A stretch of 12,103 nt of DNA from a virus. Taxonomy: Duplodnaviria; Heunggongvirae; Uroviricota; Caudoviricetes. The notes beneath the pieces were generated by a model, which was given only the letters and a program-made list of their open reading frames with translations, had not been told where the DNA came from and did no database searches. The first letter of the stretch is position 1. Every line of letters begins with the position of its first letter. The DNA is taken from IMG/VR virus record IMGVR_UViG_2617270939_000001; one strand, written 5' to 3'. The position numbers were made by a program, and so were the translations under genes. Shown piece by piece: positions 1,917 to 12,103 of this stretch.

Positions 1917-3904
1917 TATGCAAGCCTCACAATATAGTTAAATGCGATGTTTTTGACGGTGTTTTCCGCGTTACCAGCAGCGTTAACGGTGATGGTATGT
2001 CCATGTGAACCAATCGCAACGGAGTGCGTATGAGCACCAATACCGACAGTATGTGCGTGTGCACCTGCGCTTGCAGCAGTACCCGATACAGAGTGCGTAT
2101 GAGCGCCTGCAGAAGAAGTGTTAACACTGTATTTAGAATAATCAGGTGATCCACTTCCCGGAGCACCACTGGAACCACCTGAAACAAATGTCATCGAATG
2201 GGTATGTGCACCGGCTGAAGCAGCCGTACCGCTAACACTATGGGTATGCGCACCAGTGTTATTCGTGGATTTAGTGCCGTAATCAAACGACGATGTGGTT
2301 TTCGTCCCCAAATCCGTACTGGATACGCTGGCGCTGTGGGTGTGTGATTTAATGCCGTCCTGTTCCTGAGACAATACGGCTCGATCACTGGCGGGCTTGC
2401 CCTTAATCGTCCAGCCACGCATATCAGGGATCACGCCTGACGGATAAGCGGCTGCAAGTTTCGGGTAAGCAGATTTGTCAAAAGTCTGCCCCTGCATCAG
2501 GGCATAACCAGACGGAACGGTATCTGATGGCCACGGGATTGGTGCGCCGACTGGATAAAACTCTGCAGGAGGATGAGCCGAGGTGTAAAGCTGCGCCCAC
2601 GGCGACCAGTTTGCGTCGGTCGTATCCCGTCGTGAACGAATAAATGCCGGAGCATGATCGCCGCTGGTTCCACTCCAGCCAATAAGTAACTCACCCTCTC
2701 CTACTGCGGTTACACCAGTGAGATGAAGCACATTACCATAGGTTGTTGGGTAGCCATTGTTGTATGCCTCATACATCTGAATGCCTGGTGTACCCTTTGC
2801 GCTCCCACTTAATGCCGTAACACGGTTTCTGGATACTAACGTATTAATATTTATATCGCTGGAACCATCAAATTTAACTCCATTTATATTTATCGCATTT
2901 TGTAACTTGGTTGCTGTCAATGCGTTACCGTTCAGACTTGCGGACAGTTTGGTTCCAATAACCAGTTCGCCGGTTGCGTTATCAATAGCAAACGGTCTTA
3001 ATGTATTCCAGCCACCATAAACATCACCTTGATTGGTAAGCAGCAGGTAAGTTTTAGCGCCATCATTACGCCATAATGCACCATACTCCCCACCTATCAT
3101 TCGAATCTGATTACCACCACGCGCTACAATTTCGTCTGTGGCAAAAAGTTTTTTGCACGACAAGTTATCGTTAACGATTAACGAATGAGACTCATAAAAA
3201 CCACGCCCACTCTTAAAATCAAGGATAACGTCCGCCGCGATACATTCAGTCGCCGGATTTGTTGCCCCAAACTTATAGGTCGTATCATTAACAACGAGAT
3301 CAGCACCAGGTGCGGATATTGACAGGCCATCTTCGATAAACGCAAAAACAGGGAAAGCAGCGCCATCAACATAGAACACAGAGCGCAAATCATCGCCCTT
3401 ATTACTCATCATTATTGAGTGGATGGCTCGTTCATTGTTTTGATATTGCCAGAACATTCCATAAGCATAACGCCCCCTGTCAGTCCAGCCACCAGGCATA
3501 ACAAATCCGTTAAACTCGCAGTTATTCATCGGATCGCCTGCGGTTCGCGTTGCCGTGGTGATAATGACCCTTGATGCCAGTTCGCTTACTGAGCCAGCAG
3601 AACGCATAACAGCAACAGGGTAATATTTTCCAGATGTTGCACCTGCAGGAGCGTTAACCCGCACATAACGCATACCACGCTTATCAGCAAAGTCTGTTTT
3701 ACTGACCGCGTTAATGTTGTTCAGGAAGCGTCCCTTATCGGGTATATCAGCGCCGTTCTGGTCTTTCTGCAGACGTTTCTCTGCATTGTCATAGGCTGCT
3801 TTTACTGCCTTTGGCGTTGCCGCCAGCGTTTCAGACGTGCTGTTGGTCGCACTGCTGAGCTGTACTATCCCCTTTTTCGTCGTGCTCGCATCCTCAAGCG
3901 CCAC
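1916..3904 (-). CDS. stf: Side tail fibre protein (Stf), C-terminal portion only; the frame is open up to about 4294 but has no ATG, and homology to lambda Stf begins about 4230
   Basis: Translation matches the lambda Stf middle and C-terminus ([35 protein letters not shown] … [14 protein letters not shown] … [31 protein letters not shown]). Upstream in the same frame (3905-4230) is the Ala/Ser/Thr-rich repeat typical of Stf. The 3904 start in the ORF track is a GTG (Val in SAVALED), not a true start. Confidence 0.8.
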
Positions 3905-4665
3905 GGCGGATGCAATATCCTCTGCCCGTTTTGCTGCTGTCTCGGCGCGCGTTGCCGCGGATTCCGCCGTACTTTTGCTCTGAGCTGCCGCCGTCGCACT
4001 GCCAGCTGCCTCTGTCGCCTTCGTGGATGCCGTCGTGGCGCTGCCCTTCGCTGCTGACGCCTGTCTGGTCGCCTCATCTTTTGAAGCAGACGCCGATGAT
4101 GCCGATGACGCCGCCGAACTGGCGGACGATGCCGCTGCCGTTTTTGAGGATTCTGCACGGGTTTCCGACGCTTTCGCGTTCGTTTCGGATGTCTTCGCTG
4201 CGGAAGCTGACCTCGCTGCTGCACTGGCCTGTTTTCCAGTTCCGGAAAACGCCGCTGCACCGACAGGGGGATCCCGTCGAGAATACTGGCAATTTCACCT
4301 GCGATCCGCGACAGCACGAAAGTACAGAATGCGGTTTCCACCACTTCAGCGGAGTCTCTGGCATTTTTCAGCTCCTGTGCGTCGGCCTGCGCACGCGTAA
4401 GTCGATGGCGTTCGTACTCAATAGTCCCTGGCTGGAGATCTGTCTCGCTGGCCCGCCGCAGTTCTTCAACTTCCCGGCGCAGCTTTTCGTTCTCAATTTC
4501 AGCATCCCTTTCGGCATACCATCTTATAACGGCGGCAGAGTCATAAAGCACCTCATTACCCTTGCCACCGCCTCGCAGAACGGGCATTCCCTGTTCCTGC
4601 CAGTTCTGAATGGTACGGATACTCGCACCGAAAATGTCAGCCAGCTGCTTTTTGTTGACTTCCAT
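3865..4665 (-). CDS. nohA: Terminase small subunit Nu1 homologue (NohA-like): 146 N-terminal codons are Nu1, then about 120 codons of out-of-frame stf DNA (deletion fusion, probably non-functional)
   Basis: First 146 aa ([29 protein letters not shown]…[12 protein letters not shown]) are nearly identical to lambda Nu1, including the wHTH. After codon 146 (about 4230) the protein becomes an Arg/Pro/Gln-rich tail, which is the Ala-rich stf repeat DNA read in the wrong frame. Confidence 0.8.
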
Positions 4666-4900
4666 TGTTCATTCCACGGCCAAAAACAGAGAAAGGAAAC
4701 GACAGAGGCCCAAAAGTTCGTTTTCAGCACCTGTCGTTTCCTTTCTTTTCAGGGGGTATTTTAAATAAAAACATTAAGTTACGACGAAGAAGAACGGAAA
4801 CGCCTTAAACCGGAAAATTTTCATAAATAGCGAAAACCCGCGAGGTCGCCGCCCCGTAACCTGTCGGATCGCCGGAAAGGACCCGCAAAATGATAATAAT
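4666..4900 (-). other. Intact lambda-type cohesive-end site: cosB (between Nu1 start and cosN), cosN (4843-4854), cosQ side (about 4855-4895)
   Basis: The minus strand reads …CCGACAGGTTACG|GGGCGGCGACCTCGCGGGTTTTCGCTATTTATGAAAATTTTCCGGTTTAAGGCG…, which is the lambda right end joined to the lambda left end with the 12-nt cohesive sequence GGGCGGCGACCT, directly upstream of the Nu1 start (ATG 4665-4663). Confidence 0.85.
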
Positions 4901-5857: not shown

Positions 5858-5880
5858 AAAACCCCGTAAAAACGAGGTTT
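5858..5880. terminator. Candidate bidirectional rho-independent terminator between ydfO (+) and gnsB (-)
   Basis: Imperfect hairpin AAACCcCG-taaaaa-CGaGGTTT with T-rich flanks on both strands. Stem has a mismatch. Confidence 0.35.
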
Positions 5881-5906
5881 ATGGATAAATTTTATTATTG
5901 AATACA

Positions 5907-6080
5907 TCAGATTAAATTAATCTTGACATCATAGCTTTCAAGACCCGTCATTTTTTCCCGTGCGGTAAACTGAATACTGGTAACTTCTTTCCCGGTCTTT
6001 TTCTTAAGTTCAATAATTTTTTTTGTTATATATTCAGAAATATCTGCTTCTGCTTTTGTTTTTAAGTTTTCAATATTCAT
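5907..6080 (-). CDS. gnsB: GnsB, 57 aa; absent from the ORF track because it is under 60 aa
   Basis: Manual reverse-complement translation gives MNIENLKTKAEADISEYITKKIIELKKKTGKEVTSIQFTAREKMTGLESYDVKINLI, stop TGA at 5907-5909. AAGAGGAAATG precedes the start (tandem ATGs at 6083 and 6080). Confidence 0.8.
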   Translation of the reverse strand: MNIENLKTKAEADISEYITKKIIELKKKTGKEVTSIQFTAREKMTGLESYDVKINLI

Positions 6081-6251
6081 CATTTCCTCTTTTAGTCTGT
6101 TATGACTTTCCAGTTACACAGTAAGTCGATTATATGGTGCAAACGTGTAAAAGATAAGATGAAACATCGCAATAATCAACATACGATAGTCTAAATTTTA
6201 CACAAACAGACAAAGAGAATTTTCCTGAATTATCAATGCAATAGCATCAAA

Positions 6252-6482
6252 TCAACTCAAGAGCCTTATTGCTGCTTCCAGAATTTCTTCTGAAGTAACA
6301 TGTCGATCCGCGGCTACATAAATGACTTTATGATCTCCGGTCAGAGATGGAAACCCTGCGGCCATTACAGTAAGGTGTGTTTTTTCGCCATTTGGATATT
6401 CACGCATGATGGTGTTAACTCCAGTCATCGCTGGCACTACCACTGCTGGTTCAGAGTTAAAAAAAACTATGATTTTTTTCAT
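6252..6482 (-). CDS. Small hypothetical protein, 76 aa from MKKIIVFF (track ORF extends to a further upstream ATG at 6524); at the position of the cold-shock-induced ynfN in Qin
   Basis: Clean ORF in the AT-rich cargo block, same strand as the flanking gnsB and cspI. Start is ambiguous and the SD is weak. I do not recognise the sequence with confidence. Confidence 0.5.
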   Translation of the reverse strand: MKKIIVFFNSEPAVVVPAMTGVNTIMREYPNGEKTHLTVMAAGFPSLTGDHKVIYVAADRHVTSEEILEAAIRLLS

Positions 6483-6523
6483 GATGTTACCGTAGTATGT
6501 GAGTATCCATCGAATAGACACCA

Positions 6524-6560
6524 AGCAAAAAAGCTCCCGAAGGAGCCTTCATTTTCACTT
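6524..6560. terminator. Candidate terminator/attenuator hairpin between cspI and the downstream small ORF
   Basis: GCTCC-cgaa-GGAGC, a 5-bp GC stem with a GNRA-like loop, flanked by an A run (6524-6532) and T-rich sequence (6551-6565). Stem is short. Confidence 0.3.
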
Positions 6561-6753
6561 TTTTAAATCCAACGACAGACGGCTGGCATTTAAGTATTGT
6601 GAAATATTATCAAATGTAATCATCATTGATTTACAAAAGATACATTTTGCCCCGAAAGGATTCATGTCAGAAACATCAAAAGATGATGTTCTATACTGGG
6701 AACCATGACAACACGGGCATCTAAAGTGAATATGGTTTGTAATATTGTCTACC

Positions 6754-6966
6754 TCAAAGCGCCACTACATGAACAGCGGCAGGACCTTTAGGTCCGTTCT
6801 CAATACCAAATTCAACTTCCTGATTCTCAGTTAATGTTTTGAAATCGTTGCTCTGAATTGCTGAGAAATGGACAAACACATCTTTGCTGCCATCTTTCGG
6901 CGTGATGAAACCAAAACCTTTTTCAGGGTTAAACCATTTCACTAAACCAGTCATTTTGTTAGACAT
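6754..6966 (-). CDS. cspI: Cold-shock protein CspI (CspA family), 70 aa
   Basis: [70 protein letters not shown] carries RNP1 (KGFGFI) and RNP2 (VFVHF). Confidence 0.9.
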
Positions 6967-7098
6967 AATTATTACCTTTTGAAGAAATTAGCCCTTGGGC
7001 AGAATGGTCCGAAAAAAAATATCAGAGAGAAAAACCAACAAGGAAATCTCAAGAGGTACAAATAATAAAATTATAACAATGACTGCTTCAGATAAATT

Positions 7099-7146
7099 TG
7101 TAACAAACCAGAACACCATTAACGCATGATTAACCACCCATAGCAA
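7099..7146 (-). promoter_or_regulatory. Predicted cspI promoter (-35 TTGCTA 7146-7141, 17-bp spacer, -10 GTTAAT 7123-7118) and cold-box-like 5' UTR start (GGTTTGTTACA, 7109-7099)
   Basis: Same layout as the cspB promoter in this window, and similar to the cspA promoter (TTGCAT/CTTAAT) followed by a GGTTTGACGTACAGAC cold box, as I recall it. Predicted 5' UTR about 144 nt. Confidence 0.45.
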
Positions 7147-7328
7147 GGATTACTTTTGTAAAGAAAAACACAGCAATGAAAGAATAGCTTTATTTATTAA
7201 TAAAACGTGTCATTCTGATTAAGACCTTTTATCTTACCCTTAAGATTTCAGGAATTTTGGCTCATGGAAGAGTCCTTTTTATTTAAATTTTACATTCCGC
7301 GATGTAAATGTTCCGATTTAATATTACC

Positions 7329-8662
<1,334 letters not shown>

Positions 8663-9327: not shown

Positions 9328-9354
9328 TAATAAAAAACCCGCCTGAGCGGGTTT
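9328..9354 (-). terminator. Rho-independent terminator acting on the minus strand (downstream of cspB)
   Basis: Perfect 8-bp stem AAACCCGC-ctga-GCGGGTTT (9335-9354), followed on the minus-strand transcript by a U run (plus-strand A run 9328-9337). Confidence 0.7.
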
Positions 9355-9635
9355 GAGATTGTGGTGCTTTTTGTGGGAGTCATCCACTTACGCACTTTGT
9401 TTTGCGATGCCAGCAGTTAGCTTCTGCTGTGAAACTATTCATGCAGCAAACCTGCACTTCACCACAATGGTTAGCATACTTTTCCTGATTAAGATTTTGC
9501 CAAATATGCTGGCCATTGTTTCATGTATTGGACCTCCTTACTTTTTATTAAAGAGATCCAATATTCACTACTCTGTCCGTATCTCTACTCAGGCATCAGC
9601 CTTCTTCGTTATCGTATACAGACGAGCGATGAATT

Positions 9636-9851
9636 TTAATCAGTAATGATGACATTTGCTGCTGCAGGACCTTTAGCACCACTCTCTATAGAGAAGGTAA
9701 CCTTTTGACCTTCAAATAAGGTTCGATAATTATCATTCTGAATCGCAGAAAAATGCACAAACACATCTTTACTACCATCAACAGGAGAAATAAAGCCGAA
9801 ACCTTTATCAGCGTTAAACCATTTTACTAAACCAGTCATTTTATTTGACAT
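9636..9851 (-). CDS. cspB: Cold-shock protein CspB (CspA family), 71 aa
   Basis: [67 protein letters not shown]… with RNP1 and RNP2 motifs. AAGGAA SD. Confidence 0.9.
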
Positions 9852-9993
9852 TCTACATTCCTTAACTTGAGCCTTTCGGCATAAATGGTTTGCATAACAG
9901 AAACGACTTCGTACTTAATTGGAGAGACTCAAAGAAGGAATAAGTGAATAACACCTGAAATGAGAACTGCTTTAGTAAACTACTTCGTATATC

Positions 9994-10047
9994 GTCTGTT
10001 CTTCAAACCGACGCAGTCATTAACTCATAGTTGAACATATGAAGCAA
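9994..10047 (-). promoter_or_regulatory. Predicted cspB promoter (-35 TTGCTT 10047-10042, 17-bp spacer, -10 GTTAAT 10024-10019) and cold box at the 5' UTR start (CGGTTTGAAGAACAGAC, about 10010-9994)
   Basis: Minus strand reads TTGCTT-n17-GTTAAT-gactgcgt-CGGTTTGAAGAACAGACGA…AAAGCAG, closely paralleling the cspA promoter and cold box as I recall them. Predicted 5' UTR about 159 nt (10010 to 9852). Confidence 0.55.
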
Positions 10048-10149
10048 TGTTTATTTTAGACATCCAGCCACCTTCAACCCTATCAAAAAAGTAGTTTTCT
10101 CCAGGAACGTGTGTATGGTGCACCAGGTTATCAGTATTAAGGAGTTTTT

Positions 10150-10358
10150 CTGTCCCCTAAAATGACAGGAATTGTCAAAAACTTTGACTACAAAAGCAGC
10201 AAAGGTCTTATATTCCCATCCGATGGCGTATCGATGCCCAGCTTCACGTTTCAGCTCTCAATCTTCGAGATGCAGAAGAAATTACCACAGGATTACGCGT
10301 GGAATTTTGCCGGATAAATGGTTCGCATGGACCTTCAACTGCCAATGTTTATCCCGGG
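10150..10358 (+). pseudogene. cspF: cspF-like cold-shock gene remnant: start codon position is CTG, one frameshift, and no stop at the expected end
   Basis: TAAGGAG SD (10138-10144) sits 5 nt before CTG 10150, where ATG is expected. Frame 1 from ATG 10162 gives [22 protein letters not shown], then homology resumes in another frame (…[12 protein letters not shown]…[21 protein letters not shown]) after a one-base loss near 10227. That frame runs on through the terminator. Confidence 0.6.
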
Positions 10359-10395
10359 ATGAGATTCAATATCTCTATTGCCCCATTTAAAGCAC

Positions 10396-10430
10396 AAAAA
10401 CCCGCTTATAAGCGGGTTTTCTACTTTTTT
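10396..10430. terminator. Strong bidirectional rho-independent terminator; candidate tR' of the Q-dependent late transcript
   Basis: Perfect 9-bp stem AAACCCGCT-tata-AGCGGGTTT (10398-10419) with an A run before and a T run after, so U tracts follow the hairpin on both strands. About 110 nt downstream of the Q stop on the minus strand. Confidence 0.75.
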
Positions 10431-10526
10431 CTAAACGTCGGATACACAAAGCCCATCGTTGAGAAAATCTTATCCATGTTTTTTGAAAAATGCAAACATC
10501 ATGTCGCCATCTTCAGCAAAAATCAT

Positions 10527-11836: not shown

Positions 11837-12103
11837 CTAGACACTTCCGAGCCGTTGATAATACTGGTTTTCATATTCTGTCGGTGACATCTGTTCGCTA
11901 GAACCATGCCGACGCTTACTGTTATAAAACATTTCGATGTAATCAAAAATATCACTGCGGGCTTCTTCCCGCGTTCCGTAGATCTTTTTCTTTATCCGTT
12001 CACGTTTCAACAACTGGAAAAAACTTTCTGCAACCGCATTATCATGGCAGTTACCGCGACGGCTCATGCTACCCTCCAGGCCGTGTGATTTCAGGAACGA
12101 CTG
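11800..12103 (-). mobile_element. IS3-family insertion sequence, right end and 3' part; approximate inner boundary 11800-11836
   Basis: Transposase 3' end at 11837. The terminal inverted repeat could not be identified because the other end is outside the window. Confidence 0.6.
11837..12103 (-). CDS. IS3-family transposase (OrfB, DDE/rve domain), C-terminal 88 codons; gene continues beyond the right edge
   Basis: Minus-strand frame is open from the window edge to TAG at 11837-11839 (…QSFLKSHGLEGSMSRRGNCHDNAVAESFF…SPTEYENQYYQRLGSV). SRRGNC.DNA is the hallmark around the catalytic Glu of IS3-family transposases. Confidence 0.8.
   Translation of the reverse strand, partial: QSFLKSHGLEGSMSRRGNCHDNAVAESFFQLLKRERIKKKIYGTREEARSDIFDYIEMFYNSKRRHGSSEQMSPTEYENQYYQRLGSV

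Follow-up and report, generated by a model that had tools for sequence, protein, structure and literature searches.

Cold-shock genes in the late region of Qin

The stretch of DNA analysed here (the window; 12,103 nucleotides (nt); IMG/VR record IMGVR_UViG_2617270939_000001) is the late region of the Escherichia coli cryptic lambdoid prophage Qin. It gave a 99.9% match to the E. coli chromosome NZ_LR536431.1 across its full 12.1 kb and was colinear with the Qin late region of K-12 MG1655. Two of its genes, cspI and cspB, encode cold-shock proteins. The reading put forward here, to which we assign a probability of roughly 0.93, is that Qin carries a cold-shock cargo in which cspA-type promoters and leaders give cold-inducible cspI and cspB. 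Motifs, geometry, Rfam membership, conservation and gene identities were computed in this study.

Read along the − strand, the window starts with ydfU, cut by an insertion sequence (IS) element of the IS3 family, followed by ydfT (the Q antiterminator), cspB, the holin gene essQ/essD, a ydfR-like pseudogene, the lysozyme gene rrrQ and the Rz gene rzpQ. After these come cspI, ynfQ, ynfR, ynfN and gnsB, the site cosN, and a truncated nohA fused to tail-fibre genes. Genes on the + strand are interspersed: a frameshifted cspF between ydfT and cspB, ynfU between cspB and the holin gene, and ydfO and ynfO between gnsB and cosN. Protein identities were checked with Pfam and NCBIfam (CSD, YmcF-like, GnsAB_toxin, YnfU, DUF1398, DUF3950, DUF2514). 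CspI and CspB belonged to the cold-shock domain family (Pfam PF00313), and their best NCBIfam models were CspG and CspA.

A preliminary description of this DNA had placed gnsB, a small open reading frame (ORF) and cspI on the late-operon strand, in a distinctly AT-rich stretch between Rz and cos. The placement was correct: rzpQ ends at 7329, cosN lies at 4854-4843, and all are on the − strand, which holds Q (ydfT), holin, lysozyme, Rz, nohA and every gene that the description names. The cosN site forms the boundary of the Rz-to-cos interval carrying the cspI-gnsB cargo (Table 1). The base composition was also as described, with a G+C fraction of 0.352 in 5900-7330 against 0.471 in the lysis genes, 0.497 in Q/ydfU and 0.508 in nohA/stf/tfa; the AT-rich tract continues through the equally AT-rich ydfO and ynfO. 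The gene list needed correction in one respect: gnsB and cspI were right, and in place of one small ORF there are three annotated small genes (ynfQ, ynfR, ynfN), of which ynfN is probably the ORF that was meant. The cspB gene with its promoter (9636-10047) lies outside 5900-7330, in a second AT-rich island with a G+C fraction of 0.375.

Promoters and 5' leaders of cspI and cspB

A search of both strands of the window with TTGCTW-N17-GTTAAT gave exactly two matches, one upstream of cspI at 7146-7118 and the other upstream of cspB at 10047-10019; 200 dinucleotide-preserving shuffles gave none. The shared −35 TTGCT(A/T), 17-bp spacer and −10 GTTAAT of the preliminary description were thus found exactly in both genes and nowhere else in the window. 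Both promoters show the features of the cspA type, namely a −35 TTGnnn, a 17-nt spacer with TGn, a (C/G)TTAAT −10 and an upstream A/T run. The TGn motif has been reported in all four promoters, namely cspA, cspB, cspG as well as cspI (bioRxiv 10.1101/2021.03.08.434349). The A/T run is UP-like by sequence here, its function as an UP element being taken from the cspA literature; within it, ACAAAAC/GTAA of cspI is conserved in cspI-type loci of other genera.

Downstream of the −10, cspB reads GACTGCGT-CGGTTTG (in full GACTGCGTCGGTTTG) and cspI reads GGTGTT-CTGGTTTG (in full GGTGTTCTGGTTTG). The CGGTTTG given in the preliminary description was therefore exact for cspB only; cspI has CTGGTTTG instead. 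The −10-to-ATG distance is 167 nt in cspB and 151 nt in cspI, and a start 6-7 nt past the −10 predicts leaders of 161 nt (cspB, from ~10012) and 145 nt (cspI, from ~7111). In MG1655 the predicted starts correspond to coordinates of about 1,638,812 (cspI) and 1,641,715 (cspB). The leader lengths agree with the 5' untranslated regions of 145-160 nt proposed earlier and equal the published values of 161 nt for cspB and 145 nt for cspI (PMC6719143; bioRxiv 10.1101/2021.03.08.434349); the latter source lists leaders of 159, 161, 156 and 145 nt.

Both leaders were recognised by the Rfam model of the cspA thermoregulator (RF01766; gathering score 78 bits), with 158.8 bits for cspB (10012-9620) and 112.8 bits for cspI (7112-6727). 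The two matches were full-length (model positions 1-428), and model position 1 fell at 10012 and 7112, where promoter geometry predicts the starts.

Comparison with phage 2H10, which is ~92% identical to the window, showed promoter and leader to be the best-conserved non-coding DNA between the two phage lineages for both genes. The cspI promoter differed by 1 substitution in 54 nt and its leader was 97.9% identical, against ~90% for flanking non-coding DNA; promoter and leader together had 4 substitutions in 205 nt, compared with 39 in 382 nt for the other non-coding DNA of the block (Fisher p = 1e-4). For cspB, the promoter was 96.3% and the leader 98.8% identical, with flanks at 84-88%.

The alignment of both 5' leaders with that of cspA, as suggested in the preliminary description, was run with cspG added. 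The UP-like run, the TGn extended −10, the upstream-box hairpin and the downstream box, none of which the preliminary description had mentioned, aligned among all four genes. The downstream box followed A(A/T)AATGACTGGT(A/T)T(C/A)GT(A/G)AAA throughout (AUGACUGGUAUCGUAAAAUGG in cspA). The cold box of cspA-type genes is an 11-mer, UGACGUACAGA, that is conserved and sits in a 5' hairpin close to +1; this 11-mer served as the reference, and cspB matched it at 9 of 11 positions. In the cspI leader, a 16-nt gap follows directly after GGTTTG, and the core TGA(C/A)G(T/A)ACAGA is replaced by TTACAAATT. Chromosomal csp-ymcF loci with a leader of the same form, GGTTTG(T/A)(T/A)(A/G)C(A/G)AA…TTATCTGAAG, were also found in Citrobacter, Salmonella enterica subsp. 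arizonae and diarizonae, and Intestinirhabdus. The short hairpin variant GGUUUG-NNN-CRAAYU recurs in the cspI-type leaders of Citrobacter, Salmonella and Intestinirhabdus. Judged by this recurrence, the short-cold-box leader of cspI is a distinct type and not a decayed oddity.

Between cspB and cspI, the leaders were 55% and the promoters 57% identical. A blastn comparison of the two regions aligned only the coding sequences (73%) and nothing upstream of the ATG, so the shared architecture consists of shared motifs, not of extended similarity. The cspB leader was 75.8% identical to that of cspG, in line with a published comparison in which the cspB leader resembles the cspG leader and that of cspI diverges (PMC13271884). 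By sequence, cspB groups with cspG, and cspI carries a leader type of its own.

In the 37 °C minimum-energy fold, the 5' end (GGUUUG and the AUCUGAAGCAGU stretch) was paired with the start of the coding sequence in the downstream-box area, enclosing the ribosome-binding site. The consensus fold of 12 cspI-type leaders contained the same pairing, which agrees with the 37 °C structure in PMC13271884.

Table 1. Positions of the cold-shock genes, their control elements and neighbouring features in the window.
Feature	Position	Strand	Details
cspB promoter	10019-10072	−	UP-like TAAAATAAACA; −35 TTGCTT 10047-10042; 17-nt spacer ending TGA (10027-10025); −10 GTTAAT 10024-10019
cspB 5' leader, ~161 nt	9852-10012	−	cold box TGAAGAACAGA 10005-9995 in hairpin-forming GGTTTGAAGAACAGAC; upstream box GCCGAAAGGC
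cspB coding sequence, 71 amino acids (aa)	9636-9851	−	Pfam CSD E = 9.8e-32; RefSeq annotation
Terminator-like hairpin downstream of cspB	9335-9354	−	−16.7 kcal/mol, z = −5.7
rzpQ (Rz)	7329-7826	−	
UP-like A/T-rich run of cspI (…TTTTTCTTTACAAAAGTAATCC)	7147-7170	−	directly upstream of −35; aligned to AAAATAA in cspA, cspB and cspG
cspI promoter	7118-7146	−	−35 TTGCTA 7146-7141; 17-nt spacer ending TGC (extended −10, 7126-7124); −10 GTTAAT 7123-7118
cspI 5' leader, ~145 nt	6967-7111	−	cold-box region GGTTTGTTACAAATT 7109-7095; upstream-box hairpin GCCCAAGGGC 7000-6991; Shine-Dalgarno (SD) sequence AAGG 6978-6975
cspI coding sequence, 70 aa	6754-6966	−	Pfam CSD E = 1.6e-31; RefSeq cold shock protein CspI
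cspI downstream-box region ATGACTGGTTTAGTGAAATGG	6954-6934	−	conserved in the four-gene alignment
ynfQ, 62 aa, YmcF-like zinc-ribbon small protein	6555-6743	−	Pfam PF23641 E = 6.9e-32; RefSeq; ATT start
Intrinsic-terminator-like hairpin AAGGCTCC-TTCG-GGAGCTTT and T run	6527-6549	−	71-nt context fold −22.3 kcal/mol, z = −3.4
ynfR, 21 aa	6487-6552	−	RefSeq annotation
ynfN, 76 aa in RefSeq, 51 aa in K-12 annotation	6252-6482	−	
gnsB, 57 aa (ATG 6080) or 58 aa (6083)	5907-6083	−	Pfam GnsAB_toxin E = 3.3e-35
Terminator-like hairpin after gnsB, AAACCTCG-TTTT-ACGGGGTTT and T-rich tail	5859-5880	−	
Lambda-type cosN 12-mer GGGCGGCGACCT	4843-4854	−	exact match; cosB-like sequence after it; ~190 nt upstream of nohA

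Related loci and the genes downstream of cspI

Comparative data came from 80 loci encoding YmcF-like proteins (one genome per species), in 49 of which the ymcF-like gene directly follows a cspA-like gene. The csp genes of these csp-ymcF loci, from many enterobacterial genera, carried TTGnnn-N14-TGn-GTTAAT with (C/T)GGTTTG 6-8 nt further on in 47 of the 49 cases, at −10-to-ATG distances of 142-179 nt. The same promoter and leader layout was present in cspA and cspG of K-12; it is a signature of the whole cspA-type family and not peculiar to the two prophage genes. Since the leaders belong to the Rfam family, the layout recurs in 47 of 49 loci and its conservation relative to 2H10 is in excess, these comparisons argue that it is a conserved, selected regulatory unit.

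The two Qin genes share with cspA, the type of RF01766, the UP-like run, the −35, the 17-nt spacer with TGn, the (C/G)TTAAT −10 and the start just before GGTTTG, as well as a long leader with the upstream-box hairpin GCC-NNNN-GGC and a downstream box in the first codons. They differ in that the cspI leader is ~15 nt shorter, has TTACAAATT as its cold-box core and scores below cspB with RF01766. A second relative is the chromosomal cspH-cspG-ymcF-ymcE-gnsA locus of K-12, which has the same gene order and orientation. Its divergent cspH-cspG pair aligned with cspF-cspB at 74% over 628 nt, the whole intergenic region included; cspG and ymcF aligned with cspI and ynfQ at 74%, and gnsA with gnsB at 73% (DNA). 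In Qin, in contrast, the lysis cassette divides the module into two parts, ymcE seems cut down to the 21-codon ynfR with ynfN in its place, and blastn did not align the cspI leader with that of cspG.

The ATT start codon of ynfQ lies 10 nt past the cspI stop, where TGAGG forms an SD-like element. All 49 csp-linked ymcF-like copies began with ATT (45) or ATC (4) at an invariant spacing of 10 nt, whereas 18 of the 31 unlinked copies had an ATG start. The start codon pattern suggests translational coupling to csp, and translation of ynfQ is probably coupled to that of cspI. The hairpin at 6549-6527 starts 5 nt past the ynfQ stop, inside the ynfR ORF. An equivalent hairpin follows ymcF inside ymcE in the K-12 cspG locus, and the hairpin was kept, with differing stem sequences, in 37 of the 49 csp-ymcF loci. 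Most transcripts probably end at this putative terminator, and the conserved unit appears to be a two-gene csp-ymcF transcript.

Both ynfR (…APSGAF…) and the N-terminus of ymcE (…LPRGAF…) are encoded by the hairpin itself, and ynfR therefore looks like a remnant of the start of ymcE. No Pfam or NCBIfam family was matched by ynfN. Published expression data suggest that some transcription continues past the ynfR hairpin: the level of tagged YnfR increases strongly upon cold shock (PMC6001520), and cspI, ynfQ and ynfN were co-induced 5.8- to 6.5-fold after AZT treatment (PMC11228462). Within the block, the 168-nt spacer between ynfN and gnsB (6084-6251, −) has the highest A+T content and the lowest conservation, with 89% identity to 2H10. 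The gnsB gene is followed by its own terminator-like hairpin and may also have a promoter of its own: the spacer holds a perfect TATAAT ~50 nt before the gnsB ATG, but the −35 is poor.

An extended reading, which we regard as doubtful, treats the cspI-gnsB block as a phage-mobilised copy of the enterobacterial csp-ymcF unit with two predicted internal control points. The unit would consist of a cold-inducible csp, 10-11 nt, a ymcF-like gene starting with AUU or AUC (commonly AUG if unlinked) and an intrinsic terminator. At the first control point, AUU and the SD-like element at the csp stop would tie YnfQ synthesis to csp translation and to the start-codon proofreading of initiation factor 3. 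At the second, the terminator inside ynfR would let transcription through in the cold, perhaps by way of the antiterminator activity of Csp proteins, and would thereby gate ynfR, ynfN and perhaps gnsB.

Several further features of the window were recorded. About 95 nt downstream of cspB (9489-9540, −), a very strong SD sequence, TAAGGAGGT, is followed by an 11-codon ORF (MKQWPAYLAKS), unannotated in the records examined, which precedes the cspB terminator at 9354-9335. The cspF gene (10162-10374, +) is frameshifted in the window strain and listed as a RefSeq pseudogene, whereas K-12 and phage 2H10 have an intact copy. The 10397-10495 unit (−) resembles the pR'-tR' region of lambdoid late operons. 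A 279-aa ORF at 7823-8662 (−) comprises the lysozyme gene rrrQ (534 nt) and, upstream of it, the frameshifted, truncated ydfR-like (DUF1327) pseudogene; in K-12, ydfR and rrrQ are separate genes. The small terminase subunit homologue nohA (3865-4665, −) is truncated and runs into a tail-fibre gene. The entire head and tail region is deleted in the window, and the cosN 12-mer and cosB-like sequence upstream of nohA are intact. Both window edges (1-540 and 11837-12103) carry IS elements; in the best-matching genome, an IS5-family transposase lies just upstream of pinQ, and ydfU is cut by an IS3-family transposase fragment followed by IS30. The Rfam search of the window returned only the two cspA leaders and an unrelated full-length IS009 match (RF02111, 221 bits) in the tail-fibre assembly gene tfaQ (1375-1573, −). 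A new non-coding RNA hidden in the AT-rich block was rejected on the basis of this search.

Cold induction and carriage by phages

Since the 1990s, cspB and cspI of Qin have counted as textbook cold-shock genes, and primer extension, reporter fusions and structure probing have been published. The cspA-type promoter is active at 37 °C too, and induction arises mainly from mRNA stabilisation and refolding. The cold box has been linked to the shut-off by Csp proteins that follows acclimation, and the induction range of cspI is lower and narrower in temperature than that of cspA. Both genes are described as cold-inducible in PMC4956666 and PMC9947658, and as having long leaders with a cold box and a downstream box in PMC6719143, PMC4956666 and bioRxiv 10.1101/2021.03.08.434349 (citing Etchegaray 1996 and Wang 1999). 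Expression of cspI is controlled by its leader according to PMC13271884 (citing Wang 1999). The cspB, cspG and cspI leaders switch structure between 37 °C and 10 °C, and at 10 °C a register-shifted, shorter stem-loop frees the initiation region (PMC13271884). Cold induction has been attributed mainly to the leader, through mRNA stability and structure, over the promoter (in part PMC13271884, PMC9947658). The claim of the preliminary description that both prophage paralogues are under cold-inducible regulation is supported by the RF01766 scores together with the published induction (PMC4956666, PMC13271884).

These observations strongly favour the following model. The Qin cold-shock cargo consists of two AT-rich insertions in the late operon, each with its own promoter and terminator: the divergent cspF-cspB pair between Q and holin, and cspI-ynfQ-ynfR-ynfN-gnsB between Rz and cos. 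Each csp gene most likely has a separate sigma-70 promoter of cspA type (UP-like run, TTGCTx, 17-nt spacer ending TGn, the unusual GTTAAT), with a predicted start just before (C/T)GGTTTG and leaders of ~145 nt (cspI) and 161 nt (cspB). At 37 °C, the 5' end would pair with the coding start in one long stem-loop hiding the ribosome-binding site and the start codon, and the cspI and cspB mRNAs would be short-lived. Once the temperature falls to 10-15 °C, the fold would become shorter and shift its register, which would free the initiation region, and the mRNA would be stabilised. Cold induction would thus be set mainly by the leader, to which the 5' cold-box region and the downstream box would belong.

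A number of points weigh against this model. The start sites, cold induction and structure switch were taken from published experiments. A generic sigma-70 scan called neither promoter, because GTTAAT has a T at position 2; the promoters were assessed by explicit pattern and comparative data in its place. In cspI the cold box is short and divergent, with an ungapped match of 4 of 11 positions to the cspA 11-mer, and the cspI leader formed no stable local 5' hairpin at 37 °C. A local fold of the first 28 nt gave 0 kcal/mol for cspI versus −6.4 for cspA and −4.3 for cspB, and the retention of a cspA-like cold-box hairpin in cspI was rejected. Of the cold-box-like element described for both genes, cspB has a close match (9/11, hairpin of −4.3 kcal/mol) and cspI a divergent, putative form. 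In the consensus fold of cspI-type leaders, compensatory changes were seen at only 4 of 33 pairs, as the 12 leaders are very similar in sequence. Equilibrium folding at 37, 25, 15 and 10 °C left the initiation region paired throughout and reproduced no opening. The cold switch reportedly hinges on how the RNA folds in the cold (PMC13271884, PMC9947658), and the low-temperature equilibrium folds were counted as evidence neither way.

The shared motifs might also be ancestral leftovers among csp paralogues, without function in a silent, decaying cryptic prophage, which we consider very improbable. Decay is evident in this strain, with cspF frameshifted, a ydfR-like pseudogene, nohA truncated and IS elements at both window ends, and the alignment of cspF-cspB with cspH-cspG over 628 nt indicates that the motifs were inherited. 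Non-functional motifs are nonetheless difficult to reconcile with promoters and leaders that, in both genes, have changed less between two phage lineages than the other non-coding DNA, with a layout kept across many genera and with two leaders above the Rfam threshold. Published work moreover shows that cspB and cspI are induced by cold and that their leaders refold (PMC4956666, PMC13271884), and cold-induced mRNA and protein of both genes have been reported from the native loci.

A different objection concerns the source of the transcripts. The cspB and cspI genes run in the same direction as Q, holin, lysozyme, Rz and nohA, and just downstream of the Q stop (−) a promoter-like TTGCAT-17-TAAGAT (10495-10467) precedes a strong two-way hairpin terminator (10420-10397). 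The cargo could then be expressed chiefly on a Q-dependent, terminator-resistant late transcript from a pR'-type promoter, with its own promoters secondary. The insertion positions are classic for such cargo in lambdoid phages, and sequenced phage genomes keep the same arrangement. We nevertheless find this explanation highly improbable, given that a conserved cspA-type promoter and a separate terminator belong to each gene, and that cold induction has been reported for K-12, in which Qin is cryptic and cannot be induced. Late read-through from the pR'-like promoter could be a secondary route at most, compatible with expression from the cspI and cspB promoters.

Extra genes at two positions of the late operon, lower G+C and an own promoter and terminator liken the cargo to lambdoid insertions known as morons, and both islands have the position between phage modules, the deviant G+C and the control elements of such insertions. 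In lambdoid late operons, the classic places for inserted cargo are Q-to-holin and Rz-to-cos; examples are stx, located between Q and S, and bor, between Rz and cos in lambda. The Qin cargo differs in consisting of cold-shock RNA chaperones and small cold-induced proteins, not virulence or exclusion factors, and in being regulated mainly via the mRNA leader. The cargo block was present in 2153 of 5426 complete E. coli genomes. The Escherichia phages PhiR42_1, Tritos, 2H10, mEp460_ev081 and HannyBb carry the same order, Q-cspF-cspB-lysis-cspI-ynfQ-ynfN-gnsB with cspF and cspB divergent, at 92-100% identity and close to the genome terminus (PhiR42_1 100%, Tritos 99.8%, the other three ~92%). These are complete genomes of 45-49 kb, in contrast to the deleted, IS-ridden cryptic prophage of the window.

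The cold induction of cspB and cspI, their leader lengths and their thermometer behaviour are correct but already published; the finding has little weight as a discovery, the leaders having recently been shown to act as RNA thermometers. The present analysis adds that the promoter and leader layout is a family-wide signature in Enterobacteriaceae, that the cspI leader type is also chromosomal in Citrobacter and Salmonella, and that the whole block parallels the chromosomal cspG-ymcF-ymcE-gnsA locus. With the cargo present in complete sequenced phage genomes, temperate phages move cold-adaptation genes between strains.

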